Shown: positions 1 to 21,112, counted from the first letter of the stretch. The stretch is DNA of 57,890 nucleotides from an uncultured Christensenella sp. (GCA_964576995.1 CAZNWP010000001.1:1-57890); one strand, 5' to 3'. The notes: a model not told the origin generated them from the letters alone. Made by a program: numbers and translations.

Positions 1-2463
1 ATAATCTAAAAATTTCTTACCTTGTCCTTCACCCTGACTAATGTTAAAATATTCAATAACAATATTATAAACGTTTATGACGCTACTTTTTGTAAACTCA
101 AGCAATTTATTCCATTTTTCATTTTTTGATATGCCAATATTTGTTTGTGCTGGATTTGAAATTATATCTTGAATAGTAATATCTTCGACTTTCTCATAAT
201 TGATTTGTTTCTTTAATATTTTTTCATAAACAAGTGAGACCAACGACAGCTTTATATAGTTTGGTACATCATCATCTTTATAATCCTTTACTATAGATAT
301 AATTTCCTTCTTTCTTGATTCAAGCCAATTTGTAAGAATAAAAACAGCATTATATGCACCGTCAAAATCCCAACTTTTTTTGCCACCCAAATAAATCCAT
401 TGACCTATTGAACGTAAAACCGTATAGGTCTCCATACTGTCATCCAAACGAATTAAGCCATCTTCAGCACCTTTTTCTTGTCTTTCAAAGGATATCATTT
501 TTGACTTAAATCCAGATTCCCATATAGTTTTAATTCTATTTTTTGGAATACCGTATTGTTGCCAATTAATGGTATTGTAAATAAAATCACTTAATTCTTC
601 TTTTATTGCTCTTGGTTCTACAAAAACAGCTTTTTTATAGTACCAGTTATCTAACATGCTCTTAAATTTCTCAAAAGCCTTGTTCGTTTGTACAACAGGT
701 TTATCCGGTACATTTACTACTTCTGGTGAATCTATGTGTTCTACGCCCTCTACGCCTTCATCAATTGTATTTATTAATGAATTCCAAAGATCGCTAAAGC
801 CAAATTCAATAAATATATCCTTAGATATACCAGCGATTTTATTACCGACTTTTTTAAGTTCTCCATTACCCCAAAAACTTATTAATGCAATAGCTCTTTC
901 TTTATATTCTTCTCTATTTTCAATTTTTAAGGTATTTACTATTGCCGATATTCTTAACACTGCATCACCTAAATCAGGTTTATTCCTTTTTACTAAATAA
1001 GTAATAAACTTTGATTTATCTGTAATAAGTTCCACAATAGCAGGTTTGATAATTTCTAAAAGAATATATCTTGGAGTTTGGTGAACATTCATATAAGCAT
1101 ATAAATTTTCAATCGCTTTCTTTGTAAAAGGATACAAAGAAAGATTATTGCCACTGTATTGAACTGTTTCCCACGATGCTACATCTGGGACATGAACTGG
1201 AATTTGTGCCTCATCTGCACCGGTGTTAACATACCATTCTTTGAAATCTTTTTCCAAGAGAGATACTGCGTTCAAATATTTTGCAAAAAACAAAAATAAG
1301 TCATTTTTATTTTGCCCTAAACTACCGTCTTCAATAGTTATTTGAGCCGTAATTCTATCTTTATAATTATCTCTAAACGTATCATAATATTGTTTAGTTG
1401 CACCTACAACAGAGACAAGCTTACAAAGTTTATCTGATGCATTAAGACCTGTGTGCTCAGTTACCAAAACATTGAGTAAAGCCTGGTTGACACCAGTAAA
1501 AGACGTTATATCTTCAATTAACAGGATAAGATTTTTCCCTTGCTTATATAACTCTTGTCTTATTTCCTTAAAGATTTGTTGAAAATCCCCTGGTTCGATG
1601 CCTGCGCAACTTTGAATAACGTCGTCAACTTTAGAATTCATAAAATTAACAATTTTACTCAAAAGTTCATCATCGCAATCATCTGATACAAGCTTCTTCG
1701 CCATACTTACAGCACTACTATCTGCCGTATCTTTCATCTGATCAAAGAAATCTGTCGTAATTATAAAGTCTTCTTTCTTAAATTCGGCTATTATATCTAT
1801 GTTGGATACATTTGATGCTGAAATCTTGCTAAATATTCTTTCAATAGGACCATCTGGTTTCATCATTTCTGATTTGAATAAATCATTATTAAGTAATGCA
1901 ACCAGCCTTTTCTTTGCTAAAGATGTTAAAAATTCATCATCGCTTACGTTTATTTCTACGATAAACTTTGCAAAGATTTCCTCTTTAAATTTTACATCGC
2001 TAATAGTGGTATTTGCTTTAACAAGCCTTTCGTAAATATCTCTATTTTTTAAATTTTTTACAGCCTCAATTCCAAGAAGTTGTTTTATCGTTCCCTTTAG
2101 TGTATTGTCACTTCTATTAATTAGTAAAACTTCGTCTTCACCATTATTGAACTTTTTTGCCAATAAATTAGTATACACCCATCTAATAAAGTGCGATTTA
2201 CCAGAACCACTAGAACCATTTACAATAATCAGCTGATGTTTATCTCTAACAGCGTCATCTTCAAACAATTTATAGAAAACATCTGTTTCCGGAAGTATTT
2301 CCTTCTTTACAATATTTTCTTGGTTTTTATCAAGTAATACCCCACCTTGAAAAACTATTTTTTTAAAGGGAATATGCGTCGCCATGAAATCATATTCTTC
2401 ATTGTTAATTGAATCCACGTTAATTACTTGGTAGATTCTATTTTTCGCAATTTGTATATTCAT
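1..2463 (-). CDS. Large P-loop NTPase (>820 aa; C-terminus beyond window edge), last visible gene of the helicase operon
   Basis: Absent from the ORF track because it has no stop in the window. Hand translation from the ATG at 2463 (MNIQIAKNRIYQV...) stays open to position 1 (821 codons). Walker A GSSGSGKS at codons 83-90; Walker-B-like LILLIEDIT near codon 315. The start lies 1 nt after the upstream stop (TAAtATG). Confidence 0.75.
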   Translation of the reverse strand, partial: MNIQIAKNRIYQVINVDSINNEEYDFMATHIPFKKIVFQGGVLLDKNQENIVKKEILPETDVFYKLFEDDAVRDKHQLIIVNGSSGSGKSHFIRWVYTNLLAKKFNNGEDEVLLINRSDNTLKGTIKQLLGIEAVKNLKNRDIYERLVKANTTISDVKFKEEIFAKFIVEINVSDDEFLTSLAKKRLVALLNNDLFKSEMMKPDGPIERIFSKISASNVSNIDIIAEFKKEDFIITTDFFDQMKDTADSSAVSMAKKLVSDDCDDELLSKIVNFMNSKVDDVIQSCAGIEPGDFQQIFKEIRQELYKQGKNLILLIEDITSFTGVNQALLNVLVTEHTGLNASDKLCKLVSVVGATKQYYDTFRDNYKDRITAQITIEDGSLGQNKNDLFLFFAKYLNAVSLLEKDFKEWYVNTGADEAQIPVHVPDVASWETVQYSGNNLSLYPFTKKAIENLYAYMNVHQTPRYILLEIIKPAIVELITDKSKFITYLVKRNKPDLGDAVLRISAIVNTLKIENREEYKERAIALISFWGNGELKKVGNKIAGISKDIFIEFGFSDLWNSLINTIDEGVEGVEHIDSPEVVNVPDKPVVQTNKAFEKFKSMLDNWYYKKAVFVEPRAIKEELSDFIYNTINWQQYGIPKNRIKTIWESGFKSKMISFERQEKGAEDGLIRLDDSMETYTVLRSIGQWIYLGGKKSWDFDGAYNAVFILTNWLESRKKEIISIVKDYKDDDVPNYIKLSLVSLVYEKILKKQINYEKVEDITIQDIISNPAQTNIGISKNEKWNKLLEFTKSSVINVYNIVIEYFNISQGEGQGKKFLDY

Positions 2464-2464
2464 A

Positions 2465-3268
2465 TTACTTTATCCCCTTGTAAACGATATGAGTCACACT
2501 ATTACCAAAGTTATGTACGTCGGACTTAAACATACTCCAAGTTTCTTTACTATCGAGATTCTTCTTTAATTTAATTTCGCCCCTATCATGCATCATACGC
2601 AATGCATTTGAAAATGCGTAATTCAGGTTTAGAGTATTGCCCATCTTTTCAAATGCAACATTAGAAACTACTTGAATTATCGCAACAAATTCTCTTACTG
2701 AATATTCTCTTTTCTTTTCTAAGGAAGAACACTTAATAAAGTCTTTTAAGGCGATATACATATTAGGAAGGAAGTATATATATTGGTTTTCTTGAATGTA
2801 ACCTAACCCCAAGAATTCCAACCAAAATCTTATACCTCTCATCCTTTTAATATCTGCGTTATTATCTTTGCATTCTGTTTGAATTTCTAGAATAACGTTT
2901 GGAGCATTCACATTGCTATACTTCAAAAACTCATCTTGAGAGAATAAAAACGCCACAACCATTTTATAAAACAGGGATTCTCGATCCTTCCAAATAACTG
3001 AATTGCAATATAATCTAAAGCTATCAATTGAAGAAACAATTTTTTTGTCAGCGATATACTGCAACTTTTTATCTTCAGTTTCTTTAACCAATCCTAAATC
3101 AATGGCTGCAGATTTAACTTTACCATAATAAGACCTGTCCGTATTTAAAGCCGCCGGCTCTAAATAATCACGCAAGTCTTCATTCTTTACATCCTTGTTT
3201 GATAGTATCTTGCACATTTGAAATACTCTCTCAGGAAGTGCTTCTGGCATTATTCCATCCTTAAACAT
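2465..3268 (-). CDS. Hypothetical 267-aa protein, operon member, no motif recognised
   Basis: ORF track. 11-nt gap from the upstream helicase stop and 1-nt gap to the downstream NTPase start. Same AT-rich codon usage as its neighbours. Confidence 0.7.
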   Translation of the reverse strand: MFKDGIMPEALPERVFQMCKILSNKDVKNEDLRDYLEPAALNTDRSYYGKVKSAAIDLGLVKETEDKKLQYIADKKIVSSIDSFRLYCNSVIWKDRESLFYKMVVAFLFSQDEFLKYSNVNAPNVILEIQTECKDNNADIKRMRGIRFWLEFLGLGYIQENQYIYFLPNMYIALKDFIKCSSLEKKREYSVREFVAIIQVVSNVAFEKMGNTLNLNYAFSNALRMMHDRGEIKLKKNLDSKETWSMFKSDVHNFGNSVTHIVYKGIK

Positions 3269-3279
3269 AACATACTCCT

Positions 3280-5700
3280 TTAATTAAACATATAATCTTC
3301 GGTGTACGAAGATTCAACAATCTCGTAAAGCATTTTATTGAACGTCGGTATATAATAATTTTCTTTAGTAGCTAGTATAATCTTTATTGCACTTTTTGAA
3401 CGAATCCTATCAATCATCTGCAAAATTCGTATGATTTGACTTTCCTCATTAGGACACTCTATAAGAATTGTTTTTGACATGAAAAATTCATTTCCATTTA
3501 CAATCTTCCTAAATTCGTCCATACTAAAAACAATGCAGTCAGACAATTCTTGGCAAGTAAATTGGGGTTTTCTATCATCCTCTACAACTAACGTTTTTAA
3601 ACCTTTATCCATTAGTTTACTTTCAAGTGAATCAAAATCATTTGTCCTTATAATCAGTAGACTTGTATCTATATCATACTTATCGTTCAAATCATACTTT
3701 AACGAATTTGAACTAACTAATGGAAGACCATTATATGCTCCTTTTACAATATGGTCGGTATGCGAATTACACCCACTGCAATATTCATACGGTATGAGTG
3801 AATACTGCTCAATAAGTATATCGCTAACACATTGTGTATTGCTTTTGGATAGGAACTTTATCATATCCTTGTATGCTTTTTCGGTATCTGACCATTCATG
3901 TTCACGATACAAGGTAATAGTATCTATTATAGCTTGATTTTCCTTAAATAGGTTTTTATCTTTCAATCTAACTAATATATGATAATTGTTTTCGAAATAC
4001 TCAACCGCTTCTATTTCTATTAAATTATGCCTTTTCATAAACAACAAAACATACACGTTCCAATCTATGTCCCTTGAATTTAGGTTCGTTATAAGTTCAT
4101 CTTGTTCATTGTAATTAGGCTTAATTGAAGTGTCTAAGGTAACAGTGCCCTCCCCGTGTTTTTTTGATGTAACACCGTTTAACATACTGAACCATCTACC
4201 TTTAATCTTATCAGTTGTTAAAACTTTTCTTCTAATAAAACTGAATGCGCCAGTTTCATCTTCTTTAACATATAAAATAACACTCAATGATGAATTCCCA
4301 TCTCTACCACCTCTACCAGCCTCTTGATAGTATTTGTTAATATTATCTGGCATATATAAATGAAGAACGGTTCTTACATCTTTTTTATCTACACCTACGC
4401 CAAAAGCACAGGTTGCTATCATAATTTGGAAATCGTTATTTTTCCATTTTTGGATTAATAACTCCCTATCTTTTGACGACGTTTCACCTGTAAAAATATT
4501 GGTATTAAAAATTCCTTGAGTTTCAAGCATTTCCTTAACTCTTTTTGCCTCATCTGGCCTATCGACATAAACGATCATCGGATGAGGAAGTAGTTTGATT
4601 AATTGAATTGTTTTTTCATCCTTATCGAAGAACGAATTAGCTTTAATAAAGTTATATCTAATCTCCCTACGCAAAGAATCGCATCTTAATTCTATCCAAT
4701 TATCATTAACTGAATAAAATTCTTTAAGAAGTCTAGCATTATTTTGATTGAATGTTGCAGAAAGTAAGAATGTTCTCAACTTGTCATTCTCGGAATAGAG
4801 ATTTCTTATCAGCACGTCAACGCACTGAAAATCCAATCTAAAAGAATCGCCCCATTCAAATATAACGTGCGCTTCATCAACAATTATATTTTTTAACCAT
4901 CCTTCAGCATTAAGTTGTTTAACAACGCTCTCTAAAGATTTATTTTTTATTAATGCCTCTGGAGATAGAAATAATAACTTGATTTTTTTTGTTAATAAGC
5001 CTTTCTTAATTTTTGCGAAATCTGTGCTTGAATTATAAATTTCAATTTCGTCTTTGTGCTGAGAAATTATTTCACGTGCATTTTCAGCTTGGTCAATCAT
5101 TAACGAAACAGTGGGAACAATAACAATGGTTAATCCCGATTCTTGAAAGGCCACCGTTTGAGTAATTAAACTCTTCCCCCCACCTGTAGACATTGATACC
5201 AATACACTGCTACCAGCCGGAGCACGCAAAGAACCCATAACACACAACTTTTGTTCTTCCGACTTAAAACTGCTAAACCCCGTTAAACTTTTTATATAAG
5301 CATTTGTAGATAAATAACAGTTTTTTTCTACGTGATGAGGAACAGGTTCCGCCGTAGCTGCCTTCATAGCAAAATTAGATATTACATAATTAGGATATGA
5401 TTGTAATACCCATAAACCATCGTTTCCAGTATGTAATCCTATTGATTTGCCGAACTCCGACAATTGATAGTCAATATTAAAAGTTTCTTTTGTAAGCATC
5501 AAATAATCTCTTAAAGCTATTTCAAAATCACATGTAAACTTCTTGTTTGTTTTGACCAAAAACCATGATTTAATCAACCTAATTGCCGAATTTTTTTCGA
5601 CTTCTAGGCAACTTAAATTCTTAACTTTTTCAATACAAACACTTAAAGGATTACCGCTTTTTAAAATGTCTTCGATTTGTTTTGTTATTTTACTGCTCAT
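3280..5700 (-). CDS. RecQ-like SF2 (DEAH-box) helicase with unrelated N- and C-terminal extensions
   Basis: Motif I STGGGKS, motif II IVDEAH, motif III LSAT, motif VI QEAGRGGRDG (RecQ-type QxxGRxGRDG). About 160 aa N-terminal and about 300 aa C-terminal (contains CSGC) are without recognisable motifs. Start overlaps the SNF2 gene stop by 11 nt. Confidence 0.85.
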   Translation of the reverse strand: MSSKITKQIEDILKSGNPLSVCIEKVKNLSCLEVEKNSAIRLIKSWFLVKTNKKFTCDFEIALRDYLMLTKETFNIDYQLSEFGKSIGLHTGNDGLWVLQSYPNYVISNFAMKAATAEPVPHHVEKNCYLSTNAYIKSLTGFSSFKSEEQKLCVMGSLRAPAGSSVLVSMSTGGGKSLITQTVAFQESGLTIVIVPTVSLMIDQAENAREIISQHKDEIEIYNSSTDFAKIKKGLLTKKIKLLFLSPEALIKNKSLESVVKQLNAEGWLKNIIVDEAHVIFEWGDSFRLDFQCVDVLIRNLYSENDKLRTFLLSATFNQNNARLLKEFYSVNDNWIELRCDSLRREIRYNFIKANSFFDKDEKTIQLIKLLPHPMIVYVDRPDEAKRVKEMLETQGIFNTNIFTGETSSKDRELLIQKWKNNDFQIMIATCAFGVGVDKKDVRTVLHLYMPDNINKYYQEAGRGGRDGNSSLSVILYVKEDETGAFSFIRRKVLTTDKIKGRWFSMLNGVTSKKHGEGTVTLDTSIKPNYNEQDELITNLNSRDIDWNVYVLLFMKRHNLIEIEAVEYFENNYHILVRLKDKNLFKENQAIIDTITLYREHEWSDTEKAYKDMIKFLSKSNTQCVSDILIEQYSLIPYEYCSGCNSHTDHIVKGAYNGLPLVSSNSLKYDLNDKYDIDTSLLIIRTNDFDSLESKLMDKGLKTLVVEDDRKPQFTCQELSDCIVFSMDEFRKIVNGNEFFMSKTILIECPNEESQIIRILQMIDRIRSKSAIKIILATKENYYIPTFNKMLYEIVESSYTEDYMFN

Positions 5701-8700
5701 TTCTCATCACCACATAGCACACTGAATCAAGTGTTATGCTAGCATTTGCTATCATTTTGTAAATTATTTCATTTTGCTTTTTTTGTGTTTCTATATCTTC
5801 ATTTTTATCGAAGAAAATTGCAGAAGCCTTTTGCGCACTTAATGTGGAAACTAGTTCATTATACAATGCGTTCAAAAGCGCCTTCTTTTTTGTTTCCGAC
5901 TTTTCTATTGCTTTTCCTCTTGCCTGCTTATGAGCCATGTCAACCAATGGATACCATTTTGCTTTTGGTGGATACTCCCTGATGAAATTAGCTATCGGTG
6001 GATTAGCACCATCTCTCTTACCCAGATGTTTAATTGAAGCTCCTTTTGGATTTTGAACGATAGAAACAAACTCAGATACAACCTTACTTTCTTCTATTTC
6101 CGAATCTGAATCATCAAACACTGTAATGATCTGTTCTGAAGGAAGGTAACCCTTATACTGATTGATTAAATGTTCACTAAGTTTATTAGCATAAATTATT
6201 TTATCATCTACTTCGAGCTTCCACGTAAAAACAAAACCTTTCCAATTGATATTTGACTTACACGAAAAACAACAACAAGTTCCTTTATATGAACCTAAAG
6301 CATTTTCTGTTATAGAATCAAAAATATCATCCCCTGGTGCAAAGAAATTTAAGTAGTCATTTTGAAGAGCTTTATTTCTATTAAATGTTCCTCTAATATA
6401 GGAATTATCTCCATGGATTATTCTTTCGTTATTAAGAATACGAACTCTGTTTCTCAATTGATTCAACTTGTTCTCAATGATAGCCTTCATATCAGGTGGC
6501 ATAAACAAGGTGTTAACTAATGACTGCCATACTATTGAATCCTTAGAGAAGGCTACAACATTCTCTCCGTCTTCCTTACCATGAAAGCCAGCTAAACCTG
6601 CCCAACTCATCATTGCTTCACCAAAAAGATTTGTTTCATTTTTGGTGTATTTTTCAACCGTCTCATCAAGCATTTTATTAATTGCTTTAAATTGATAAGC
6701 TGCTATATCATAGACTTGTTCTTTTTTAAGAGTATCAAGCTGCTGTTTAATTAAATCCGCAAGTTCATTATTGGCTTGAACTAACCCAAACTTAAAAGAT
6801 TGTTTCAAACAATTAATAAGAGCATCTTCAATATCTCCCATAATAATTTCCAATCCGCTTTGAGCTTTTGTAAATAAATTTAATCCATTATTCCAGAGTT
6901 CAAAAAGATTTTCTTCTACAGTTTCTTTCCCATATGCAACTACCGATACAACGTCTTTTGAAGAATCTCTACCAATACGGTCTAATCTACCGATACGTTG
7001 TTCTATATCATTTGCATTCCAAGGAATATCAATATGAATCAAATAATCTACATGCTGAAAGTTACGTCCCTCACCACCAGACGCATCAGACAACAATATT
7101 CTTCTATGTTCTTCCGTTTGAAATCTATACGCATTTAATTCAAGGTCATCCGTATTCATTTCCTTGCTAAAGAAACAACACTTGTCTACACCAAACACCT
7201 TTATTAAAATTTCCTTGTACAAATCAAACGTTTCTTTAAAATCAGTGAAAAGAATAACTTTCCCTTCGTCGACTGACGATTTTATAAAATCAAGTATATT
7301 ACAAAGCTTTGTACCTTGTTTGAGCGCATTAAGTTCGTCCAAGAGATTACGCTCGTACATTGCATATCTATTTGCTACTGATTTTAGTTCATAAGGAATA
7401 TTAGTTTTTTCTTCCAACTTTGCTAATTGCGCATTGAATGCCTGCGCCGAGCTAAATAGCGAATGTACAACTGGAATTATATCAGTATAATAGTCTAATT
7501 CTCCGCCATATACATTTTCTAACCATTCAGCGAAAGCCGTATATGCATTCCACTCGTCAATATTATCATCGCAATCTGCTTCATAAGATAAATCAATAAG
7601 CTTTCTTTCTACGCCTTTAGTATCCTCACTCGAATTTACTTTTTGTCTTCTATTTCGAATAATTGACTTTTCTAATTGGAAATTTTCACAAACGTATGCA
7701 ATTATATTTTGAAATTCCGATATACCACACTCTTCCGCATCGTAGTTTATATTTTTCAAAAGCGTATTGAATCTATCATCTTGTATTAATTTTGACACAT
7801 CAGAAAGTTCTTCAAATACTGCCTCAAATATTTCCTCTGTTTCTTCATTCTTTTCATTGTTTGAATCCACAAGAGCTTCATTTAATGCACCAAGTTCGTC
7901 AAGCGCATTAAATATTTTTCTTATAATCTTATTTTGCTGCTCTAATAAAACCTGGAATCGTTCCTTTCCCATTTTTTCGTATTTTTCAGGTTGTATTAGG
8001 CATAACAAACGCAAGAACTCATCGTCGCGCTTTTGTAACGGGGTTGCACTTAACATTAAAATGTTATCGCACTGCTTGCTAATTTGAAGCACTCTTTGAT
8101 ATGATATTCTATCTTTTAGACATCTATGTACCTCATCAAAGATAACGAAATCATACGAATTGAACAAACACGATTCGATATTTGACATAGGCACCAAGTC
8201 AATAATATTTGAATTTATATTTTCTCCTTCAAACAATTTAAACTTGAATGCTAATTCGTTTTTCCATTGCTCAACAAGAGCATCCGGAACCGCAATTAAA
8301 ATCTTTTTATTTTTATTATCTTTTACATAAATTTTTAATATCGATAGTGCTTCTACTGTTTTACCAAGACCTACTTCATCGGCTAACATATACCTGCATT
8401 TTGGAGCCTGCAAGCATCTCATTACGGTTTTAAGTTGGTGAGGTTTCAAAAATATTTTACAACCAGCTAATACCTTAAAGCCATACAATGAATTTTCGAT
8501 ATAATTCATTGTCTTACTTACAACACATCTCCCTGTAAACCATCTTGGATTCTGAAACTCATAGGTTTTAAGTTGAAGCAATGGTCCTATAATAAAATCA
8601 TTATACGAAACCATTAACTCAGACTCGCACACATAAGAAATAGAGCCATCTTCATCTTTTACATAATAATAACGAAATTCATCATTTTTATTAAGGTCGC

Positions 8701-8962
8701 CAGCACATACTACAACTTTCCTTCTTTTATATGTAGCAAGTGCTCCTTTTTTCACCTTACAATGTACGAGCCTAGACATTTCTATTTCTATATCTTTAGG
8801 TTTCTCATGATACACAGAAACACCATTAGTATCCATAAAGATAACCTTCGCTTTTTCGGAAATCTCATCTATAGCTTCAATTTTCCCCATAGCAAAAGAA
8901 CGAGGGAATCTCATATTTTCCTCATCCACTGGACATCTAACTAGCATTCCTACTTTTATCAT
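5690..8962 (-). CDS. SNF2-family ATPase, RapA/HepA-like
   Basis: LKPHQL...RYMLADEVGLGKTVEA (closely parallels E. coli RapA LIPHQL...LLADEVGLGKTIEA), DEVH box (VIFDEVHR), LSATP, C-lobe GGEGRNFQ and QRIGRLDRIGR. About 170 aa N-terminal beta-rich region in the position of the RapA Tudor-like domains. Confidence 0.88.
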   Translation of the reverse strand: MIKVGMLVRCPVDEENMRFPRSFAMGKIEAIDEISEKAKVIFMDTNGVSVYHEKPKDIEIEMSRLVHCKVKKGALATYKRRKVVVCAGDLNKNDEFRYYYVKDEDGSISYVCESELMVSYNDFIIGPLLQLKTYEFQNPRWFTGRCVVSKTMNYIENSLYGFKVLAGCKIFLKPHQLKTVMRCLQAPKCRYMLADEVGLGKTVEALSILKIYVKDNKNKKILIAVPDALVEQWKNELAFKFKLFEGENINSNIIDLVPMSNIESCLFNSYDFVIFDEVHRCLKDRISYQRVLQISKQCDNILMLSATPLQKRDDEFLRLLCLIQPEKYEKMGKERFQVLLEQQNKIIRKIFNALDELGALNEALVDSNNEKNEETEEIFEAVFEELSDVSKLIQDDRFNTLLKNINYDAEECGISEFQNIIAYVCENFQLEKSIIRNRRQKVNSSEDTKGVERKLIDLSYEADCDDNIDEWNAYTAFAEWLENVYGGELDYYTDIIPVVHSLFSSAQAFNAQLAKLEEKTNIPYELKSVANRYAMYERNLLDELNALKQGTKLCNILDFIKSSVDEGKVILFTDFKETFDLYKEILIKVFGVDKCCFFSKEMNTDDLELNAYRFQTEEHRRILLSDASGGEGRNFQHVDYLIHIDIPWNANDIEQRIGRLDRIGRDSSKDVVSVVAYGKETVEENLFELWNNGLNLFTKAQSGLEIIMGDIEDALINCLKQSFKFGLVQANNELADLIKQQLDTLKKEQVYDIAAYQFKAINKMLDETVEKYTKNETNLFGEAMMSWAGLAGFHGKEDGENVVAFSKDSIVWQSLVNTLFMPPDMKAIIENKLNQLRNRVRILNNERIIHGDNSYIRGTFNRNKALQNDYLNFFAPGDDIFDSITENALGSYKGTCCCFSCKSNINWKGFVFTWKLEVDDKIIYANKLSEHLINQYKGYLPSEQIITVFDDSDSEIEESKVVSEFVSIVQNPKGASIKHLGKRDGANPPIANFIREYPPKAKWYPLVDMAHKQARGKAIEKSETKKKALLNALYNELVSTLSAQKASAIFFDKNEDIETQKKQNEIIYKMIANASITLDSVCYVVMRNEQ

Positions 8963-8974
8963 GACTGTACTTCC

Positions 8975-11599
8975 TTAGTTATTTTTATTTTCTAAACACA
9001 CATCCTTGCTTGCACAATATTTGCAATATGGACTTAAATTATAAGACCAATTGTTAAAAGATAAAATAGCCTCAACCTGTTCGGGTTTCAAGAGTTCTAA
9101 ATCTTTTTCTGCCTTATAATCTAAAAGATGTTCATCTTTTATAAGTTTCCTCTTCTCAACAGCTGAAAGCACTTTAAACATATTATTCTTTATGTAAAAT
9201 GGTGTTACAACATCCTTATAAACTTGAGCTGTTAACTGTGCTTCTTCCAACTTAGTACATAACCTAAATTTATTGTCAATCTTATCAAAATTTTCTTTAA
9301 TTGCATCCCTTACGCTTTTCTCATTAAAGGGTTTCCCTTGCATGCTTTCAAGTACCATATTTTTTATTAAGATTCTCATATACATGTGTATCAAAAATCT
9401 GTCTCTAAAAACGGTATCATTTTGTGCAATATTTTCTACGCCAAACTTATAAGGGCACAACGAAATTTTGATTCTAGATAATTCATCAAACGACATAACA
9501 TATTTCTTCAAATCAAATTCTGCATTCTTTGGATACACAATATTGGGCAAGAAGCCTGATTTATCATATATGCTAAATTTACGAACCTTGATTCCAAGCA
9601 TTGATAAAATATGATATAAATCATTTTCTTTATCATTTTCGGTTTTTACATAACTAAGTTTACATTTGTTTCGGCAAAATTCCAATCCGTATATTAAAGC
9701 ATATCTATTAAAATTATGATATTCCGTTTTGGCTTTTACATATAATTGATATTTCCAATCCAAAGGAATTTGAATATAGTTAAAGAAACTTACATCAAGT
9801 GGCCAAGACAAATGTTCGTCTTTGTTTGCGCAAATATCCTTATCCGACAAACAGCAGAAATGATATATTGCATTATCGTTTTTATCATCACTCTTTAATA
9901 TATCACCATCTATTTGTTCGAACCCTCTTACAATCCACTTTGCCCCGTGATTTATATTTTCATCTTGACTTAAATAGTAACTTAATGTTTGACGTAACGT
10001 AATAAATGAGCCTGATTTCGGGATATCTGTATCCCCCATTCTATCAAGAAGGTTACGCATCACCCCTATTATCTCATTATCAAATTCAGAGTTGTCATTA
10101 ACTTTAGACATAATGAACTTTTTAACTTTTTCATAGAAATGTCTAAAGTTTTCTTCACCATTCTTAAAGTCACGATAAAAAGAATCTACAATATCTCTTA
10201 AGTCTAATAATGCTTGTATTAACTCAGCCAAATTTGTAGCGGATACATTAAAGTATCCTACCTTTTTCTTCTTGTCGTAAACTACTGCAAGGTTCTTCTT
10301 AAGTTCTTTAAGTCTTGAAATAATTTTATTATAATCTTTCAAATCCTCAATGTATGGTAAAATTTGGTTGAAGGTGTTTATAAGAAGTCCTTGTTTTGTT
10401 TCAGTTAAAATACCAGCAGTTAAACACTCTTTTATATCCGAGAAATTGTTTACAACAACAACTTCATTTTCACTATCCCACATGTTCATTGTAGCAATGA
10501 AAAAGTGACCAATCGGATAATCCAAGAAATGACGTTGTTCAAACTGATCCGGGAAATATGCCCTTAATATATCATTGACCTTTGGGGAAGCAGAATAGAA
10601 TTGCTCTTCCATATATCTCAATGGTGAGCGATATGGATTACTATCTGCGCGCTTCTTCTTACGGGCTTCTTCATATATTTGAGCAACATAGTTAGCGAAT
10701 TCCGTATTGTTTTCAAACTCAATAACTTCAAACGAATCTATCTCTTCATTTTTCTCATTATATTTACAGTCAGACATCTTACCAATACAGTCTGCCAACA
10801 TATTCGATTTATAAGAGTCCCCCAATAAAGCATTAGGTTCGAACTCTTCGTTGCTACTAAATTTGATGTTGGTATTAAACAACGAATATATATCAAGCCA
10901 TGTTTGATAAACCTTTTGATATTGCTTTTGATAATTAAAAATCAAAACAACATTCTTCACCTTTGCAATGTCTTCAATTGCGCATAACATTGCTGGTGAA
11001 AATTGATGCACTCCATTTATCACAACGGTATTAAAATCTAATTTATCAAACGGGATTTTATCTTGCTTCTTTACACCAGCAGCATCTATTAACGACTGCT
11101 TTATCGCATTATTAATAGACTCATTGTCAGACACTCTCTTGAATGTAAAACTAGAATTAGGGTTTGAATAAATTATTTTATAAATATCTACTAAATACTT
11201 TTGGTCAATATTTATATTGTCGGTCTTAAAATCAAAAGGATTGAGATTTAACTCAGCTAAAATTCTTAAACTATTAGCAATATTCTTTGCATTGTTATAT
11301 AAGGATTTTCTAACACTGTCTACATGATCACCCTCGATTTGCAACATTCCTATTGCATTATCAACTTCAATCATCTGTTTGATTTTCGTACCGAAATCAT
11401 CCCACTGTTTATAGAGCAAATTAATTAAATTTTTGATTGTTGTTATGTTTAAGTTTTCATTAAAACAATCATATGTCCCTCTAAATCCATTTACTAAGGT
11501 TTGTGAAACACAAAATTGAGGACAACATCTTATATCATCCCAAAATTCCTCTTCCTCTAGCGTGTATGGATTAGTATATGTATAAATTTTTATTGACAT
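8975..11599 (-). CDS. AddB/RexB-like protein: degenerate helicase scaffold plus RecB-family nuclease-like C-terminus with 4-Cys Fe-S signature
   Basis: C-terminus has SLCPYKF ... LLDYK ... CKYCASKDVC, i.e. C-Xn-C-X2-C-X5-C as in AddB/Cas4 iron-staple nucleases, with a DYK motif-III-like element between. VINGVHQFSP resembles the AddB DGFxxFTP motif with D to N. No Walker A seen. Start moved to the ATG at 11599 (MSIKIY...) because AAGGAG lies 8 nt upstream. It overlaps the upstream stop by 10 nt (ATGTCAATAA). Confidence 0.6.
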   Translation of the reverse strand: MSIKIYTYTNPYTLEEEEFWDDIRCCPQFCVSQTLVNGFRGTYDCFNENLNITTIKNLINLLYKQWDDFGTKIKQMIEVDNAIGMLQIEGDHVDSVRKSLYNNAKNIANSLRILAELNLNPFDFKTDNINIDQKYLVDIYKIIYSNPNSSFTFKRVSDNESINNAIKQSLIDAAGVKKQDKIPFDKLDFNTVVINGVHQFSPAMLCAIEDIAKVKNVVLIFNYQKQYQKVYQTWLDIYSLFNTNIKFSSNEEFEPNALLGDSYKSNMLADCIGKMSDCKYNEKNEEIDSFEVIEFENNTEFANYVAQIYEEARKKKRADSNPYRSPLRYMEEQFYSASPKVNDILRAYFPDQFEQRHFLDYPIGHFFIATMNMWDSENEVVVVNNFSDIKECLTAGILTETKQGLLINTFNQILPYIEDLKDYNKIISRLKELKKNLAVVYDKKKKVGYFNVSATNLAELIQALLDLRDIVDSFYRDFKNGEENFRHFYEKVKKFIMSKVNDNSEFDNEIIGVMRNLLDRMGDTDIPKSGSFITLRQTLSYYLSQDENINHGAKWIVRGFEQIDGDILKSDDKNDNAIYHFCCLSDKDICANKDEHLSWPLDVSFFNYIQIPLDWKYQLYVKAKTEYHNFNRYALIYGLEFCRNKCKLSYVKTENDKENDLYHILSMLGIKVRKFSIYDKSGFLPNIVYPKNAEFDLKKYVMSFDELSRIKISLCPYKFGVENIAQNDTVFRDRFLIHMYMRILIKNMVLESMQGKPFNEKSVRDAIKENFDKIDNKFRLCTKLEEAQLTAQVYKDVVTPFYIKNNMFKVLSAVEKRKLIKDEHLLDYKAEKDLELLKPEQVEAILSFNNWSYNLSPYCKYCASKDVCLENKNN

Positions 11600-14500
11600 A
11601 ATTCTGCTCCTTCCAACAATCTGTTCCAATTGTATTTGCCATTATCCTTCTTGCCAAACCATATACATCTATTTATTGCACGAGTCAATGCAACATATAA
11701 AATACGTGATTCTTCTTTCTTGATTTCTGAAATTTCGTATTTTGTATCAAAAAACTCATTCGCATATCGTTCAACCCTAAAATTAAAGCAATACCCTATC
11801 TCGTTTTCTGTACACGAAAGTTCTATTGTATCCTTCTTGATTTCGTTTATCGCATTCTGTGTATAAGGCAAAATAACTGTGTCATATTCAAGACCTTTAG
11901 ATGCGTGTACGGTAATGCATATAACTCTTACACGATTATTCTCTTCAATAACGTCTCTCGATTTTGCTTCTTGACCTGTTGTGATTGAAATAATAAGTGA
12001 TTCGTTTATTGATTCTAACGTTAAATAATTTCTCTTATTTAATCTAGCTAAAGATTCAAAAATAAGTTCGTAATTTATTCTATAATACGTTTGTTTTTCT
12101 ATCGACGTTGAGTAGTTCTTCCAAGGCTTAGTTGCGTTATATATTTCACGTAATACCTGTAAAGTAGGATTCTTCTGAACATTCTCCACTACTTCAGCCC
12201 AAGTTTTATTCATTACTTCCTTAAAAAACAAGTTCAAGCAATCAATTAAAACTTCAAGCTTTTCTTCCTCCGATTTGCTTACCAAATTTAACGGAGAAAA
12301 TTTAATATTGATATTGTTAGAATAAATAAAGTCGTACAAATAGATAACGTTGTATGGATTGCATAACGCAGATGTCAATTTACACAAATCAATAGTTGAT
12401 TGTAATTTATAAAGGTTAGTATTCTTATCGCTTTCTACTAATACTCCTTTATCCCTGCCACGTTTTAATATTTCACCTACTTCGTAATTTTTACGAACCA
12501 GTATAGCAATTGTTTTTTCAGATTCAGACAGATTCTTGCTTTTGCTTATTTCTTCTAATTCCTTTATTCTATCCTTGACCTTATCGAAAAGCTTATCGTA
12601 TAGATCGTCCTTATTTTCATCCGTAGCTTCATACTCTACCTTTTCTAAAAATCTATCAAACGTCTCATCACTTTGCTTTATTCCAACAAGCGAATCAGAT
12701 TCACCATAAGGAATCAAATGTTGAGTACCTAAATCGGCAAACAACGAATCATATTCTTGCAACAATCTTTTATCAGAGCGATAATTTGTGTTCAACGAAA
12801 ACTTTATCCATTCATTTGTATCGCATCCCATCTTTGTGAATGCGTCCATCGTTGCGCCCCTAAATCTATATATACTTTGCTTCAAATCTCCTACGATAAA
12901 ATACTTAAATTTTATTTTATCCATCATTGCCTTGAATATACTTATTTGGGCGTCGTCTACATCTTGGAACTCATCAATGAATAAATATTTGTAATGATAT
13001 AATCTTGGATTAAACGACTCATCCTTGATGCATTTATTTAAGTAAATCATATACTCCGATAATGCAACAAGATTATTATCCAATAAGAATTGAGAATACT
13101 CAATTTCCGCATTTTTTACAACATCTAAGATAATTTCTTTAAGGTATTTCGCACCAGATATTTCAGCGCCAAGCATCTTAGAATCAATCGTTCTTAAATC
13201 AACACCCTTGTTATAGCACTTATCAATAAAATCCATCATGTATCTTTCGATGTCATACAAGCTAATTTTTACACGATATACAAATCCTGGATCTTCTTCT
13301 ATTTTTCTTTCAAAATAACTACTAAGATGTCTACGCAATATTTGTCTTCGTTGATAATTACCGGTTACCGTAGCAAAATCAGTACCTATCCCAAGAGGAA
13401 TAGATGTTCTTTGAATTATCTCTTTTGCAAAACTATGTATAGTTGAGATTCTCATTCTTTCAATATTAGAAATCATCTCTAAATAATGCTTATCTCTCGT
13501 TAATACAAAATAATTTCTAAATTGAACTTTTAATCTATTTCGCATATTAATTGCTGCTTCGTCCGTGAACGTAAGCATAGCAATTTCATCTGACACACTT
13601 AAAACATTAGATCTAGATACAGAACTACAAATATAGGAAATTCTAGATATCATTGAATACGTTTTTCCTGTACCCGCACCTGCTCTAACCTGAATATGTT
13701 TATCACAAGGAGCATGTTCTACAAAATACTGCTGCAAGTTGAAACTTGTTTTCTTTGCGAGAAGTTTTACTTTGTCAAGGATATCGTTGGGTATACAGCC
13801 ATTTATTATTGTAATATTTTCATTAAAAATATCGTCGATATTTTCATAACAGCTCGCCTCAAAGTTAAAAATTAAAACCTTATTTTCTTTAACCTTTACC
13901 GGAGACGAATTTGAAACATTTAATAACAACTGATTCCCTTTATAGGAAATATTATTCGCAACAAAATATTTATTTATATTTTCTGCTAATGCTTCTAATT
14001 CCTCTTTAGATTTTACAAATACACTTTGCCTAACACCCAACGTATAATTTTTTAAGATATTTTCAATATCTGAAAATGTTAATCTTTGAGAATATATTCT
14101 AAGTTCGGAATAGTTATTTTCAATTGTATCAGTTACAATTGATGACGTTGCCTCAAAATGCTTTCGTATCGTATCATATACAACACCTGATGTTTTATCT
14201 GCGTGTTGTACCTTATTCTGCTTAAATATCATGCCTAACTTAGCAGCAAGTTTATCTTTGTTTTCTAAATCTTCAGTAAATAAAGTTACTTCCGGTTCTG
14301 ATACAATATTTAATCCGAGCCTTTTATATTCCTCCTCTGATATAAACGGATAAGCAACAGCGCTTACGACAACGGGATTAATACCATAGCGAGAATTAAG
14401 CATGTTCAATAAGGCAAATCTATAACCATTTGCCTGCTTCTTTGGTGATGATACAAGTTTATCATAGTCTTTTAATTGAATTTCGTCTGGAGATTTTACC

Positions 14501-14706
14501 GATACAACATGTTCTGGCATCCATCCCTTTACTTCAATTATCATTAGACCAAGATTTTTAATTAAAATACAAAAATCAAACTCGTGTCCGTTTATCTCCC
14601 TATTGTAATACCCTATTACAGTATCGGGAAGATTTCTTTCAAGGCAATCATAAACCCTTGCCTCGCCAACGTATTTGTCACTTTTTTTATCTAAAATTTT
14701 AGCCAT
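11590..14706 (-). CDS. NERD-domain / UvrD-family SF1 helicase fusion (AddA-like role, nuclease module at the N-terminus)
   Basis: N-terminus GEARVYDCLE...EFDFCILIKNLGLMIIEVKGW (NERD-type D-X13-EVK). Helicase motifs AGAGTGKT, FIDEFQD, VGDLKQSIYRFRGA, TNYRS, HASKGLEYD, LYVALTRA. GGTGA RBS upstream of the ATG. Confidence 0.9.
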   Translation of the reverse strand: MAKILDKKSDKYVGEARVYDCLERNLPDTVIGYYNREINGHEFDFCILIKNLGLMIIEVKGWMPEHVVSVKSPDEIQLKDYDKLVSSPKKQANGYRFALLNMLNSRYGINPVVVSAVAYPFISEEEYKRLGLNIVSEPEVTLFTEDLENKDKLAAKLGMIFKQNKVQHADKTSGVVYDTIRKHFEATSSIVTDTIENNYSELRIYSQRLTFSDIENILKNYTLGVRQSVFVKSKEELEALAENINKYFVANNISYKGNQLLLNVSNSSPVKVKENKVLIFNFEASCYENIDDIFNENITIINGCIPNDILDKVKLLAKKTSFNLQQYFVEHAPCDKHIQVRAGAGTGKTYSMISRISYICSSVSRSNVLSVSDEIAMLTFTDEAAINMRNRLKVQFRNYFVLTRDKHYLEMISNIERMRISTIHSFAKEIIQRTSIPLGIGTDFATVTGNYQRRQILRRHLSSYFERKIEEDPGFVYRVKISLYDIERYMMDFIDKCYNKGVDLRTIDSKMLGAEISGAKYLKEIILDVVKNAEIEYSQFLLDNNLVALSEYMIYLNKCIKDESFNPRLYHYKYLFIDEFQDVDDAQISIFKAMMDKIKFKYFIVGDLKQSIYRFRGATMDAFTKMGCDTNEWIKFSLNTNYRSDKRLLQEYDSLFADLGTQHLIPYGESDSLVGIKQSDETFDRFLEKVEYEATDENKDDLYDKLFDKVKDRIKELEEISKSKNLSESEKTIAILVRKNYEVGEILKRGRDKGVLVESDKNTNLYKLQSTIDLCKLTSALCNPYNVIYLYDFIYSNNINIKFSPLNLVSKSEEEKLEVLIDCLNLFFKEVMNKTWAEVVENVQKNPTLQVLREIYNATKPWKNYSTSIEKQTYYRINYELIFESLARLNKRNYLTLESINESLIISITTGQEAKSRDVIEENNRVRVICITVHASKGLEYDTVILPYTQNAINEIKKDTIELSCTENEIGYCFNFRVERYANEFFDTKYEISEIKKEESRILYVALTRAINRCIWFGKKDNGKYNWNRLLEGAELCQ

Positions 14707-14727
14707 TGTTTTTCACCTTTTAAGAAA

Positions 14728-14946
14728 TCATTCCTCTTGTGTATCAACTTCTATAAAATCACATACATCGCCTATATTACAATTACAAACTTTGCATATT
14801 TTCATAAGTGCAGATAGCGATACTTCCTCATCCCTGCGAAGCTTAGTCATTGTGCCTGCAGCTAGTCCTGACGCCTTTCTTAAATCCGCTTTAGACATAT
14901 CAAGGTCTATCAATAATTTCCAAAGTTTCTTATAGCTAATCTTCAT
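14728..14946 (-). CDS. XRE-family helix-turn-helix transcriptional regulator (72 aa), first gene of the operon
   Basis: MSKADLRKASGLAAGTMTKLRRDEEVSLSALMKICKVCNCNIGDV is a typical short Cro/CI-type HTH. Its stop lies 21 nt before the helicase start. Confidence 0.85.
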   Translation of the reverse strand: MKISYKKLWKLLIDLDMSKADLRKASGLAAGTMTKLRRDEEVSLSALMKICKVCNCNIGDVCDFIEVDTQEE

Positions 14947-14988
14947 TTTTTTAGTTCTCCTAAAATATATAAAATCCCAATTTACATA

Positions 14989-15017
14989 ATTATAGCACTT
15001 GATACAATATAAGTCAA
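14989..15017 (-). promoter_or_regulatory. Sigma-70-type promoter of the XRE/helicase operon
   Basis: Minus strand TTGACT (15017-15012), 17-nt spacer, TATAAT (14994-14989), about 40 nt upstream of the XRE start codon. Confidence 0.7.
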
Positions 15018-15102: not shown

Positions 15103-15756
15103 TTATTTTTTGTGACAATAATCCCAATACCAGCATCGATAAGGTGTCTCGCAGTGACATCCAACCTCTCTTAACACTTCTTCCTTTTGGAATTTTATCT
15201 TACCAAGAATCCAGATGTTATCATCAACCTGTCTCCAGTATTTTGTTGCTTGGTCTGTAACATCTTGAATTACAAAAGGATTATTCTCATCTGGCCCGTG
15301 ATATATAACATAGCAATTTTTGATGATAACGCCACACTTTTTCAAAAGATATCTTTGAAATGCAATATCTTGCACGAATATATCTTCAACCTGTGGTGAA
15401 TTCTTTACTTCGTATATATCGTAACCATCCCCATTCTTCTTTAAGATATCAACTGCGCAATAATGACCATAATAAGTAAAAGCAGCTTCGCAAATAACTT
15501 CAACACCTAACGATATAGCACCCTTAGTCTTTTCGATCATTTGCTGATAATCAAGTCTATCACTATCTTCCTTGTACGTAGTGACTTCTATATAAGGACC
15601 AAAAATCCCCATCGCCTTATCGCCAAACTCATTTCCAGCATCAAGCTTTTCTTGTACTTCTGGCGGAATAATCTTAAATTCGGGATGATGCTTATCAAGC
15701 CACAACATCCTTGGACACTGCAATCCTCTCATAAAATCCGTTTTCGTTACACCCAT
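15103..15756 (-). CDS. Stand-alone PD-(D/E)xK nuclease, DUF2779/Cas4-like with Fe-S cysteines
   Basis: N-terminal LQCPRMLWL (DUF2779/Cas4-type first Cys), AVDIL...DIYEVK (D-X13-EVK), C-terminal CHCETPYRCWYWDYC cysteine cluster. AAGGAG RBS. Confidence 0.7.
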   Translation of the reverse strand: MGVTKTDFMRGLQCPRMLWLDKHHPEFKIIPPEVQEKLDAGNEFGDKAMGIFGPYIEVTTYKEDSDRLDYQQMIEKTKGAISLGVEVICEAAFTYYGHYCAVDILKKNGDGYDIYEVKNSPQVEDIFVQDIAFQRYLLKKCGVIIKNCYVIYHGPDENNPFVIQDVTDQATKYWRQVDDNIWILGKIKFQKEEVLREVGCHCETPYRCWYWDYCHKK

Positions 15757-16548: not shown

Positions 16549-17166
16549 TTACTTAGTTGTTAATATAACTAGCATTTCAATCCAGAAATTCATATTTTTA
16601 TCCATTGAATTCCATAATCTATTTGATATTACCTTAAATGCAGTTGCTCTTAACCTGTAATAATGCCTTTCCGATATCTCTAATTTGTTTGCAACCTCAG
16701 TTAAAATTAATTTCTCAGGTGCAATATACGATTGATAAATTAATTGATACAAAAGTTCCCCTTGATAAGCATATCTTTTTAAGGAATCTACAGCAACATT
16801 TATTCTATCTATAATTAGTCTCGCTTGTGTAATCCCCTCTAATCTATGCTCTAATCGCCTATTCCCATACGCCATCTCAACATCTAATCGACTAATTAGT
16901 TTATCGATATTCTCAAATGGCTGCTCTAGTTCGTCTGAAATTTCCTCAGGAAAAGTTTCTAACACCCACGCAAGATTTCTATATTGCTTCAGCATTAATT
17001 CAGTATTGTGATAAACACGACGTTGCTTACTTTGTTTTGCTTTACGAATTCTTTCCTCGGCAATATTTTCGTCTTCAATAAGGCCAGTCCTAACAAACAA
17101 CTGCACCATTTTCTTTATCTCATCTTTCTTTTCGGTAAAGATATTGCTATTAGATTTATTTCCCAT
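16549..17166 (-). CDS. Regulator with C-terminal sigma-70 region-4-like HTH (about 205 aa)
   Basis: C-terminus LTEVANKLEISERHYYRLRATAFKVISNRLW. Start moved to the ATG at 17166 (MGNKSNS...) because AGGAGG lies 6 nt upstream. C-terminal module is paralogous to the upstream 522-aa protein. Confidence 0.65.
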   Translation of the reverse strand: MGNKSNSNIFTEKKDEIKKMVQLFVRTGLIEDENIAEERIRKAKQSKQRRVYHNTELMLKQYRNLAWVLETFPEEISDELEQPFENIDKLISRLDVEMAYGNRRLEHRLEGITQARLIIDRINVAVDSLKRYAYQGELLYQLIYQSYIAPEKLILTEVANKLEISERHYYRLRATAFKVISNRLWNSMDKNMNFWIEMLVILTTK

Positions 17167-18737: not shown

Positions 18738-18762
18738 ATAAAAAAAGCCGATTTTCATCGAC
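18738..18762 (-). terminator. Small terminator-like hairpin at the island edge, between the truncated PBP and the 522-aa gene
   Basis: Minus RNA GUCGAU-GAAA-AUCGGC (6 bp with one G-U, GNRA loop) followed by U7. It sits directly before the AGGAG of the 522-aa gene. Confidence 0.45.
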
Positions 18763-18823
18763 TTCTTCACTTAAAAATTTTATTTGGTTGTTTATTATTA
18801 TATACTATGTATATAATACTCAT

Positions 18824-20377: not shown

Positions 20378-20432
20378 TTTCTTTTTCTCCTTTCGGTTTA
20401 TATTAAAATTTATTCTCTAAGATAAAATTATA

Positions 20433-21077
20433 TTACTTTTTTATCATTCCGTATTCGCTTTCAGCGATTTCCGCTACGTAAGCGTCGGAGGACACGGCGT
20501 CGATTTCCGCAGCGACGGTGTTATATTCCGCAACGACGGCGTTAAGTTTCGCGGAGGTTTCCGCGTTACCCTTAGAGAGCATCGCAAGCACGCCCGTATT
20601 CAATACGATAAGCGTTAATATAAGCGCGACTGCGATAGCGTACAAAGCAACGACGAGTTTACCCTTTGCGTTTAAACGGTAACCTTCGCTTACTTCCTCT
20701 TTTTGTTTCGCCATATCGTTAAATACTTGCGCGTTGTCCGCGGTATCTCCGAACTGCATCGTCGTGGAAGTAGGTTGTATATCCTCGTCGGTAGCGGTTT
20801 CAACTCTCGCTTCGACGGGAGTTTCTTCTATTACGGGCGTTTCGCTTTGCGCGATAACGGTCGAAGCCGCTTCCGCGATTTCTTCATCCTTATATTTTTC
20901 GTAATTCATAATACGGTCGAGATTTTTTTGCATTCTCGCCTTGGCTTCTTCTAAATCGGTATCGCAAACGGGCTCGCTCATATAATCCCTATACGAGTCG
21001 GGCATTTTACGTTCTAAAACGTCCACCGCGGCGTTGCCTGCCGATACAAAACTTATGGGTCTCCTTGTCGTTATCAT
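20433..21077 (-). CDS. FtsL-like cell-division protein with long cytoplasmic N-terminus
   Basis: Positioned between rsmH and the PBP. Single TM (LVVALYAIAVALILTLIVLNTGVLAML), then a coiled region ending AEIAESEYGMIKK as in FtsL/DivIC proteins. Confidence 0.55.
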   Translation of the reverse strand: MITTRRPISFVSAGNAAVDVLERKMPDSYRDYMSEPVCDTDLEEAKARMQKNLDRIMNYEKYKDEEIAEAASTVIAQSETPVIEETPVEARVETATDEDIQPTSTTMQFGDTADNAQVFNDMAKQKEEVSEGYRLNAKGKLVVALYAIAVALILTLIVLNTGVLAMLSKGNAETSAKLNAVVAEYNTVAAEIDAVSSDAYVAEIAESEYGMIKK

Positions 21078-21112
21078 AATTTTCTCCTTTAATAGGTTTA
21101 TTATTGCGGATA

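Follow-up and report, generated by a model that had tools for sequence, protein, structure and literature searches.

A candidate composite restriction-modification locus in an uncultured Christensenella sp., with Dpd-type ATPases, an AddAB-like pair and probably linked phosphorothioation genes

The closest described counterpart of the operon considered here is the Dpd system (dpdA-K; 7-deazaguanine modification and restriction, of the Salmonella Montevideo type), and parts of its make-up recall phosphorothioation (Dnd) systems, AddAB and its relatives, BREX, DISARM, and Nhi or Gabija. DpdE has been equated with BrxHII of BREX, and DpdH plus DpdI with BrxC (10.1101/2025.09.15.676423). Dnd systems have restriction partners that include DndFGH, DndI and PbeABCD (PMC11662687, PMC9239217), and the phosphorothioate restriction partners found in the literature also take in SspE, SspFGH, Tdp and BREX type 4 (PMC12914056, PMC11662687, PMC9239217). 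The operon lies at the left end of a 57,890-nt contig from an uncultured Christensenella sp. (GCA_964576995.1, CAZNWP010000001.1:1-57890), analysed over its whole length and called the window below. Judged by profile searches, four of its seven genes are homologues of DpdE, DpdF, DpdG and DpdH; ahead of these stand genes for a NERD-UvrD helicase and an AddB-like protein, and a nearly identical contig that runs on past the window edge carries dndBCDE. On balance, the locus is probably a composite defence of the restriction-modification type, made up of a Dpd-type ATPase cassette, an AddAB-like effector pair and a phosphorothioate module.

Compared with Dpd, the homologues of DpdE, F, G and H keep the Dpd gene order and have similar lengths, as does a candidate DpdI past the edge in the nearly identical contig; identity to a canonical Firmicute Dpd locus from Laceyella (L035) is 22-34% over the shared E-I genes. 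The NERD-UvrD and AddB-like pair, at the 5' end, replaces DpdJ (a YprA-family helicase) and DpdK (a PLD nuclease), which like DpdD are absent from the window, from the nearly identical contig (L001) and from two more distant relatives (L004 and L006). DpdA (a TGT-family transglycosylase), DpdB and DpdC are not among the operon genes, nor in the 8 kb past the edge in L001; they are also missing downstream in L004 and L006, and Dnd genes occupy that place.

The operon and its Dpd-like genes

Features of the operon in the window, in order of transcription:
15017..14989, minus strand: promoter-like site TTGACT-17-(TG)cTATAAT, intergenic, upstream of the XRE gene
14728-14946, minus strand: XRE gene, 72 amino acids (aa), helix-turn-helix regulator of the XRE/Cro-C1 type
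11590-14706, minus strand: NERD-UvrD gene, 1038 aa, first gene of the conserved core
8975-11599, minus strand: AddB-like gene, 874 aa from an ATG, 884 aa from an upstream TTG
5690-8962, minus strand: DpdE-like SNF2 (RapA/BrxHII-type) ATPase gene, 1090 aa
3280-5700, minus strand: DpdF-like RecQ-type superfamily 2 (SF2) helicase gene, 806 aa
2465-3268, minus strand: DpdG-like gene, 267 aa
1-2463, minus strand: DpdH-like (BrxC-like) P-loop NTPase gene, N-terminal 821 codons of a full protein of about 1026 aa

For each of the four Dpd-like proteins the corresponding Dpd family is the best NCBIfam match, with PADLOC concurring for DpdE, F and H, and the order DpdE-F-G-H is the canonical one. The DpdE-like protein matches NCBIfam DpdE at 4.9e-104 over profile positions 5-1046 of 1048 (349 bits, cut-off 500) and PADLOC DpdE at 3.7e-71, ahead of BrxHII and DrmD; Pfam finds SNF2, Helicase_C and RapA_C, and the motifs DEVGLGKT and DEVH are intact. 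For the DpdF-like protein, with DEAD and Helicase_C domains in Pfam and intact TGGGKS and DEAH motifs, the NCBIfam DpdF match (9.6e-130, 434 bits, cut-off 550) leaves RecQ behind at 3.2e-58, and PADLOC DpdF is matched at 7.1e-105. The truncated DpdH-like protein aligns to positions 6-823 of 1014 in NCBIfam DpdH (9.9e-78) and matches PADLOC DpdH at 1.1e-39, with weak Pfam P-loop matches; its Walker A (GSSGSGKS, K89) and Walker B (ILLIED) motifs are invariant.

The DpdG-like protein matches NCBIfam DpdG at 3.4e-9 (36 bits in the window family, below cut-off), and the Pfam DpdG family (PF28110) is recorded on 96-97%-identical homologues of it. Its AlphaFold2 (AF2) model (pLDDT 89.6) has no significant match to a PDB fold, the best being at E 0.017, and the weak matches are mostly winged-helix regulators. 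It may be a repeated winged-helix DNA-binding protein.

The NCBIfam Dpd equivalog cut-offs are strict, and the window family scores close to a bona fide Firmicute Dpd locus. In the Laceyella locus DpdE (420 bits), DpdG (59) and DpdH (292) likewise fall below cut-off, compared with 349, 36 and 271 in the window family, the last figure being that of a 98%-identical, full-length DpdH-like homologue of 1026 aa (P0001). The DpdJ (1249 bits), DpdK and DpdD of the Laceyella locus are all above cut-off.

A first-pass annotation, made from the DNA of the window, had described seven minus-strand genes behind a single consensus promoter, with no terminator between them, in an AT-rich island and continuing past the left edge, and had matched the set to no named defence system. 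The layout is borne out by the open reading frame (ORF) coordinates, including gene sizes and the junctions, which from the XRE to the DpdH-like gene are a 21-nt gap, a 10-nt overlap, a 12-nt gap, an 11-nt overlap, an 11-nt gap and a 1-nt gap. The last claim did not hold, as hidden Markov model (HMM) scans assign four of the seven genes to DpdE-H, and Dpd was missing from the list of systems that had been compared.

The promoter-like site is present as described, agreeing with 11/12 consensus positions and having in addition the TG of an extended -10. Because promoter-like sites across the region show no excess (89 found vs 92 expected in shuffled sequence), this one is persuasive only through its quality and its intergenic position. 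Two weak terminator-like matches lie on the coding strand within the operon (13405..13384 and 3314..3294), and the total number of such matches is not above chance (10 found vs 7.0 +/- 2.6 expected); the operon is interrupted by no convincing terminator. The contig end cuts it within the P-loop gene, which is open there.

Of the window proteins, only the DpdE-like one matches BREX and DISARM components of the BrxHI/HII (4.4e-43) and DrmD (8.5e-38) kind, both more weakly than DpdE; PglZ, PglX, BrxA/B/L, DrmB and DrmC have no match in the window in PADLOC or NCBIfam, and the sole DrmA match (8.5e-29) falls on the helicase core of the SNF2 protein. Nhi and Gabija share the logic of a nuclease with a UvrD-type helicase, and there are generic matches to the GajB UvrD domain down to 1.7e-35. 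A PADLOC scan of nine proteins gave no match to GajA (an OLD-family ATPase-TOPRIM nuclease), and its 25 best matches do not include Nhi. In these loci the AddB-like gene and then the Dpd-like cassette invariably come after the helicase. Gabija, DISARM and BREX were each rejected as the identity of the locus, their partner genes being missing.

The NERD-UvrD and AddB-like pair

The NERD-UvrD protein has NERD (7.3e-9), UvrD-helicase (5.4e-37) and UvrD_C (4.6e-18) domains in Pfam, and the motifs of each part are intact: D44...E58-x-K60 in NERD, Walker A (AGAGTGKT) at 342 and DEFQ at about 578. Its best NCBIfam matches are recB and addA, at 117-140 bits vs cut-offs near 700. It is predicted to be a nuclease-motor effector, with NERD fused to a superfamily 1 (SF1) helicase of the AddA/RecB/UvrD type.

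The 874-aa protein that follows has no match in Pfam, NCBIfam, PADLOC, PHROGs or PDB sequences, and a profile search against the PDB gave only noise. A word-index search returned 691 homologues with E<=1e-5; among the best 120 of these, every named entry is labelled "hypothetical", and no Pfam domain is recorded on any. When 1.84 billion representatives were searched exhaustively with a profile, 632 clusters at 50% identity were found (E<=1e-3); the family is small and uncharacterised. Its AF2 model (pLDDT 75, pTM 0.57) gave AddB chains as the top Foldseek matches (4cei_B, E 3.2e-11), followed by UvrD/Rep/PcrA, RecC and AdnA. C715, C859, C862 and C868 are invariant, in the pattern (C...CxxCx5C) of the AddB and Cas4 iron staple. 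A D..(D/E)xK triad is not conserved between the cysteines, and Walker A and B motifs were not found. Because the predicted fold and the cysteines agree with AddB, and no triad is conserved and the Walker motifs are missing, the "AddB-like" half of the first-pass description is supported and its "Fe-S nuclease" half was overstated. The protein looks like a non-catalytic partner of the RecC/AddB type, and the NERD domain of the helicase is the likely nuclease.

The arrangement resembles AddAB, RecBCD and AdnAB in that an SF1 motor of the UvrD/RecB type is followed by a partner with a predicted fold closest to AddB, then to RecC and AdnA, here with cysteines in the AddB pattern. It differs in that the motor has an N-terminal NERD nuclease and not a C-terminal RecB nuclease, and that the partner has no Walker A, conserved nuclease triad or sequence-level match in the PDB; the addA and recB cut-offs are not approached.

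A more distant pair is found on the Geobacillus zalihae plasmid pJS1-2 (L054, 11419-18392), with a UvrD-type helicase without NERD, a 909-aa AddB-like relative (21.5% identity) and a second helicase. No Dpd genes lie alongside, and an abortive-infection gene, insertion sequence elements and a type II restriction-modification system are nearby.

The contig edge, the dnd genes and conservation

Contig L001, located through the DpdH-like homologue P0001, shares 98.0% identity with the window across 12,466 nt; an exact look-up of the DpdF-like and UvrD proteins of the window found no entry. As the first-pass annotation had supposed, the operon continues past the edge; in L001 the DpdH-like gene is followed by a DpdI-like gene, dndB-dndC-dndD-dndE and a macro-domain gene. 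The DpdI-like protein (222 aa) aligns with the DpdI-position protein of the Laceyella locus at E 2e-14 over 70 residues, and neither of these two is recognised by any of the HMM libraries.

DndB (387 bits, cut-off 328), DndC (358, cut-off 290) and DndD (312, cut-off 246) exceed their NCBIfam equivalog cut-offs; DndE is below its own and is matched by Pfam and PADLOC. DndC carries SGGKDS and CWCC. DndD, which has no CxC hook, belongs to the canonical type. An identity of DndD as a PbeC/CxC-type ATPase was rejected, with the CxC motif absent and the DndD equivalog cut-off exceeded. The gene dndA was not found in L001. The position after dndE is held by a cysteine desulfurase (DndA) in L004 and L006 and by the macro-domain gene in L001, where a 342-aa macro-domain protein and a leucine-rich-repeat protein occupy 18752-21204.

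A 112-nt spacer separates the DpdI-like gene from dndB in L001. At 13793-13850 it contains a perfect 11-bp inverted repeat, ATGGTATACTT-N12-AAGTATACCAT, overlapping the -10 of a promoter-like site and followed by a T-run. The repeat may serve as an operator for DndB or as a weak terminator, and together with the promoter-like site it suggests that the dnd genes are transcribed separately, under their own regulation. The first-pass annotation, in noting that no methyltransferase was visible, missed the place of the modification genes: to judge from L001, dndBCDE would supply the missing "modification" half of the system from beyond the edge.

Of the described restriction partners of Dnd, DndF, DndG, DndH, SspE and PbeB-D have no PADLOC match among the window proteins. 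PbeA gives weak PADLOC matches (E 6e-12 and 7.6e-05; compare DpdF at 7e-105), and the weak helicase-core matches to PbeA and dnd_restrict_1 over PADLOC and NCBIfam (E 6e-12 to 1e-5) lie far behind those to the Dpd models. The candidate restriction genes here are none of the published partners.

A locus scan limited to one genome per species returned 43 loci, and the conservation of the gene set that the first-pass annotation had proposed to check was found to be wide. A seven-gene core, from UvrD through DpdI, has the same order in more than 27 Bacillota species of GTDB, with protein identity falling to about 25-30% (Lachnospiraceae, Ruminococcus, Oscillospiraceae, Hathewaya, Sedimentibacter, Selenomonadaceae, Neomoorella, Clostridium, Neobacillus and others), and gene overlaps or very short gaps recur at the junctions. 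L004 and L006 have the same layout throughout (UvrD-NERD, AddB-like, DpdE, F, G, H, I, then DndB, C, D, E, A) at 39-65% protein identity. Of 28 core loci that extend 5 kb or more downstream, Dnd genes are adjacent in 14, on the same or the opposite strand, and these 14 are spread over both deep clades of the DpdH tree.

Two clades without Dnd (Ruminococcus; Lachnospiraceae/Lacrimispora) have a NADAR-like gene or one of about 600 aa after DpdI instead. In a Clostridia metagenome-assembled genome (MAG) of the Ruminococcus-type clade (L012, 13919-14800), the product of this gene has 293 aa; it contains a NADAR / riboflavin-intermediate N-glycosidase domain (TIGR02464, 1.5e-34) and weakly matches an anti-phage model of the NADAR family (8.4e-11). 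In Lachnospiraceae and Lacrimispora (L023, 13806-15599; L048, 13797-15596) it is a 597-599-aa protein whose N-terminus appears DUF262-like by eye. The size and domain type are those of DndI, a phosphorothioate-sensing nuclease of 596 aa with DUF262-HNH domains (PMC11662687); NCBIfam gives no match.

The E-I cassette also occurs with other partners. In the canonical Dpd loci L035, L040 and L041, E-F-G-H-I are followed by a large ORF in the DpdJ position (the identity of DpdJ, DpdK and DpdD is HMM-confirmed in L035 only), and the UvrD/AddB-like pair is found in none of them. In a Selenomonas MAG (L029, 10001-17649), DpdE-F-G-H-I are followed by the DISARM helicase DrmA (882 bits, just under the cut-off of 950). 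Since the partners differ in this way (DpdJ/K, DrmA or the UvrD/AddB-like pair), the cassette is modular.

At the 5' end of the operon, the XRE protein matches Pfam HTH_26 (5.4e-19) and a VanU-like NCBIfam model (4.3e-21, below cut-off), and a 43%-identical copy of the type lies about 1 kb upstream in L055. Neither an XRE nor a Cas4-like gene was called upstream of the UvrD gene in L051 or L053, the two relatives in which that side was read, so that "XRE-led" describes this operon and is, on the basis of those two, a local addition outside the conserved core. The upstream neighbours in L051 and L053 are AbiE, a McrB-N/NOV_C protein and NERD-HRDC, genes of a defence-island kind.

In the window, the product of a 217-aa gene directly upstream of the operon promoter (15103-15756, minus strand) looks like an Fe-S nuclease of the Cas4/RecB type. 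CPRMLW, D...EVK and a cluster of cysteines at the C-terminus can be made out by eye; the Pfam and PADLOC Cas4 matches are weak (E 0.002-0.005), and tblastn found no copy in the related loci fetched, most of which do not reach upstream of the UvrD gene. Further out, two overlapping minus-strand ORFs (16549-17211, 220 aa; 17156-18724, 522 aa) have similar C-terminal helix-turn-helix segments, no Pfam match and weak PHROG matches to phage transcription regulators. The AT-rich island is confirmed, with a GC fraction of 0.31-0.34 from 1 to about 18800 vs 0.40-0.48 in the rest of the window. It is apparently inserted in a gene for a penicillin-binding protein (18824-20305, minus strand; boundary near 18800) within the dcw cell-division cluster, beside ftsL-like and rsmH genes. 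The transpeptidase match of the penicillin-binding protein ends at profile position 243 of 299, just after the KTG motif, where GC drops. No integrase was seen in the portion of the island inside the window. A phage origin of the operon was rejected: the sole match in phage collections was an "UNVERIFIED" 8.3-kb faecal scaffold with no annotation.

Readings of the locus

The operon is most likely a defence system, carried in a foreign AT-rich island. Under the composite reading favoured here, the ATPase cassette would consist of the DpdE-, F-, G- and H-like proteins and the DpdI-like one past the edge, the NERD-UvrD protein and its four-cysteine AddB/RecC-like partner would take the role of the DpdJ helicase and DpdK nuclease, and dndBCDE would stand in for DpdABC. 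From the homology, gene order, tight coupling, conservation and co-occurrence of these genes we infer a series of biochemical steps, the formation of a complex and a dependence on phosphorothioate. DndCDE, with a housekeeping cysteine desulfurase, would place phosphorothioate marks on host DNA, with DndB regulating. The BREX-like DpdE-I machinery would bind and translocate on DNA and separate marked from unmarked; on unmarked invading DNA it would license the NERD-UvrD/AddB-like heterodimer for unwinding and degradation. The XRE protein would provide locus-specific transcriptional control of a toxic restriction operon, with the dnd genes apparently under their own promoter and operator.

Several observations weigh against this reading. 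The DpdE, F, G and H homologues all fall below their NCBIfam equivalog cut-offs, and the dnd genes lie outside the window, their presence being deduced from the 98%-identical L001. No nuclease triad is conserved in the 874-aa protein, whose model is of moderate confidence only, and on the Geobacillus plasmid a UvrD and AddB-like pair stands alone, without Dpd genes. How canonical Dpd carries out restriction has itself yet to be established (PMC10164549), so the roles assigned here are analogies. Finally, 14 of the 28 core loci have no Dnd genes within 10 kb, and because of this half the core may not need phosphorothioate at all, or may use marks made by genes elsewhere.

The last point leads to the possibility that the core (NERD-UvrD, AddB-like and DpdE-I-like proteins) is self-sufficient and blind to modification, sensing for example DNA ends or replication intermediates that the AddAB-like pair has entered, with Dnd as a frequent, independent neighbour. 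In its favour are the Dnd-less loci, including the whole clades with other genes after DpdI; the dnd genes of L001 do have their own promoter-like site, and frequent uncoupling of the modification module from the restriction module has been argued for Dnd (PMC10853773). This reading is nonetheless rather unlikely: Dnd adjacency in both deep clades and in two orientations is hard to ascribe to chance, the same cassette serves a modification-dependent system in canonical relatives (PMC10164549), and in the Dnd-less genomes the modification genes could lie elsewhere.

It is less probable still that the locus unites two or three independent systems of a defence island (an AddAB- or Nhi-like pair, a partial Dpd remnant and an orphan Dnd modification module) which are carried along jointly without functional interaction. 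Defence islands commonly juxtapose systems (PMC12914056), and the plasmid pair without Dpd genes and the E-I cassette without that pair in L035 and L029 fit such a history. It sits poorly, however, with a UvrD-through-DpdI order that stays fixed across more than 27 species even where identity falls to about 25-30%, with junctions that overlap or leave gaps of 1-21 nt. Every locus with an AddB-like gene upstream of DpdE also has DpdE-H, and the Dpd part has no nuclease of its own once DpdK is gone. A role outside defence, as a DNA repair or recombination module or one for the replication or maintenance of a mobile element (an AddAB paralogue with accessory helicases), seems very improbable. The RecB/AddA-, AddB-, RecQ- and RapA-like domains all have housekeeping relatives, and the block lies in an inserted island beside weak phage-type regulators; yet each helicase is closest to a Dpd family rather than to RecQ, RapA or AddA, PHROGs has no match for the AddB-like or DpdG-like proteins, and the species distribution is patchy, with linkage to Dnd, abortive-infection and McrB-type genes.

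In the literature searched, whose coverage is incomplete, no description was found of Dnd combined with Dpd-like or UvrD genes. Dpd, RecQ and UvrD all go unmentioned in the main text of the most thorough survey of gene neighbourhoods around Dnd (PMC10853773). A survey of YprA helicases reports uncharacterised "Dpd-like" classes, but is built on a helicase missing from the window locus (10.1101/2025.09.15.676423). What appears new here is the pairing of a restriction cassette of the Dpd type with phosphorothioation and with an effector resembling AddAB, a variant on a known theme with a predicted role in defence.

Tentatively, and with somewhat more doubt than confidence, the composite reading can be extended: DpdE-I may be a general ATP-driven engine of DNA surveillance that is plugged into varied self-marks (7-deazaguanine, phosphorothioate and possibly DNA methylation of the DISARM type, the latter not seen in the DrmA-linked L029) and varied effectors (DpdJ/K, DrmA, or the NERD-UvrD/AddB-like pair). 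The NERD-UvrD and 874-aa proteins would then form an unrecognised AddAB-like family of antiviral effectors, and the locus would be the first phosphorothioate-guided restriction system of the Dpd type.

For annotation, the consequence is that current tools will split such loci into an "incomplete Dpd" and a "Dnd modification only" system, with the two leading genes unassigned. More broadly, the locus bears on how the Dpd restriction proteins (DpdD-K) work, and the joining of the E-I cassette to Dnd and a helicase-nuclease suggests that the cassette itself does not read 7-deazaguanine. It offers a new candidate among the restriction partners of phosphorothioation and bears on how defence proteins discriminate phosphorothioate-marked DNA when only a fraction of sites is marked, in a compact and testable gene set that is conserved across many gut and rumen Bacillota.

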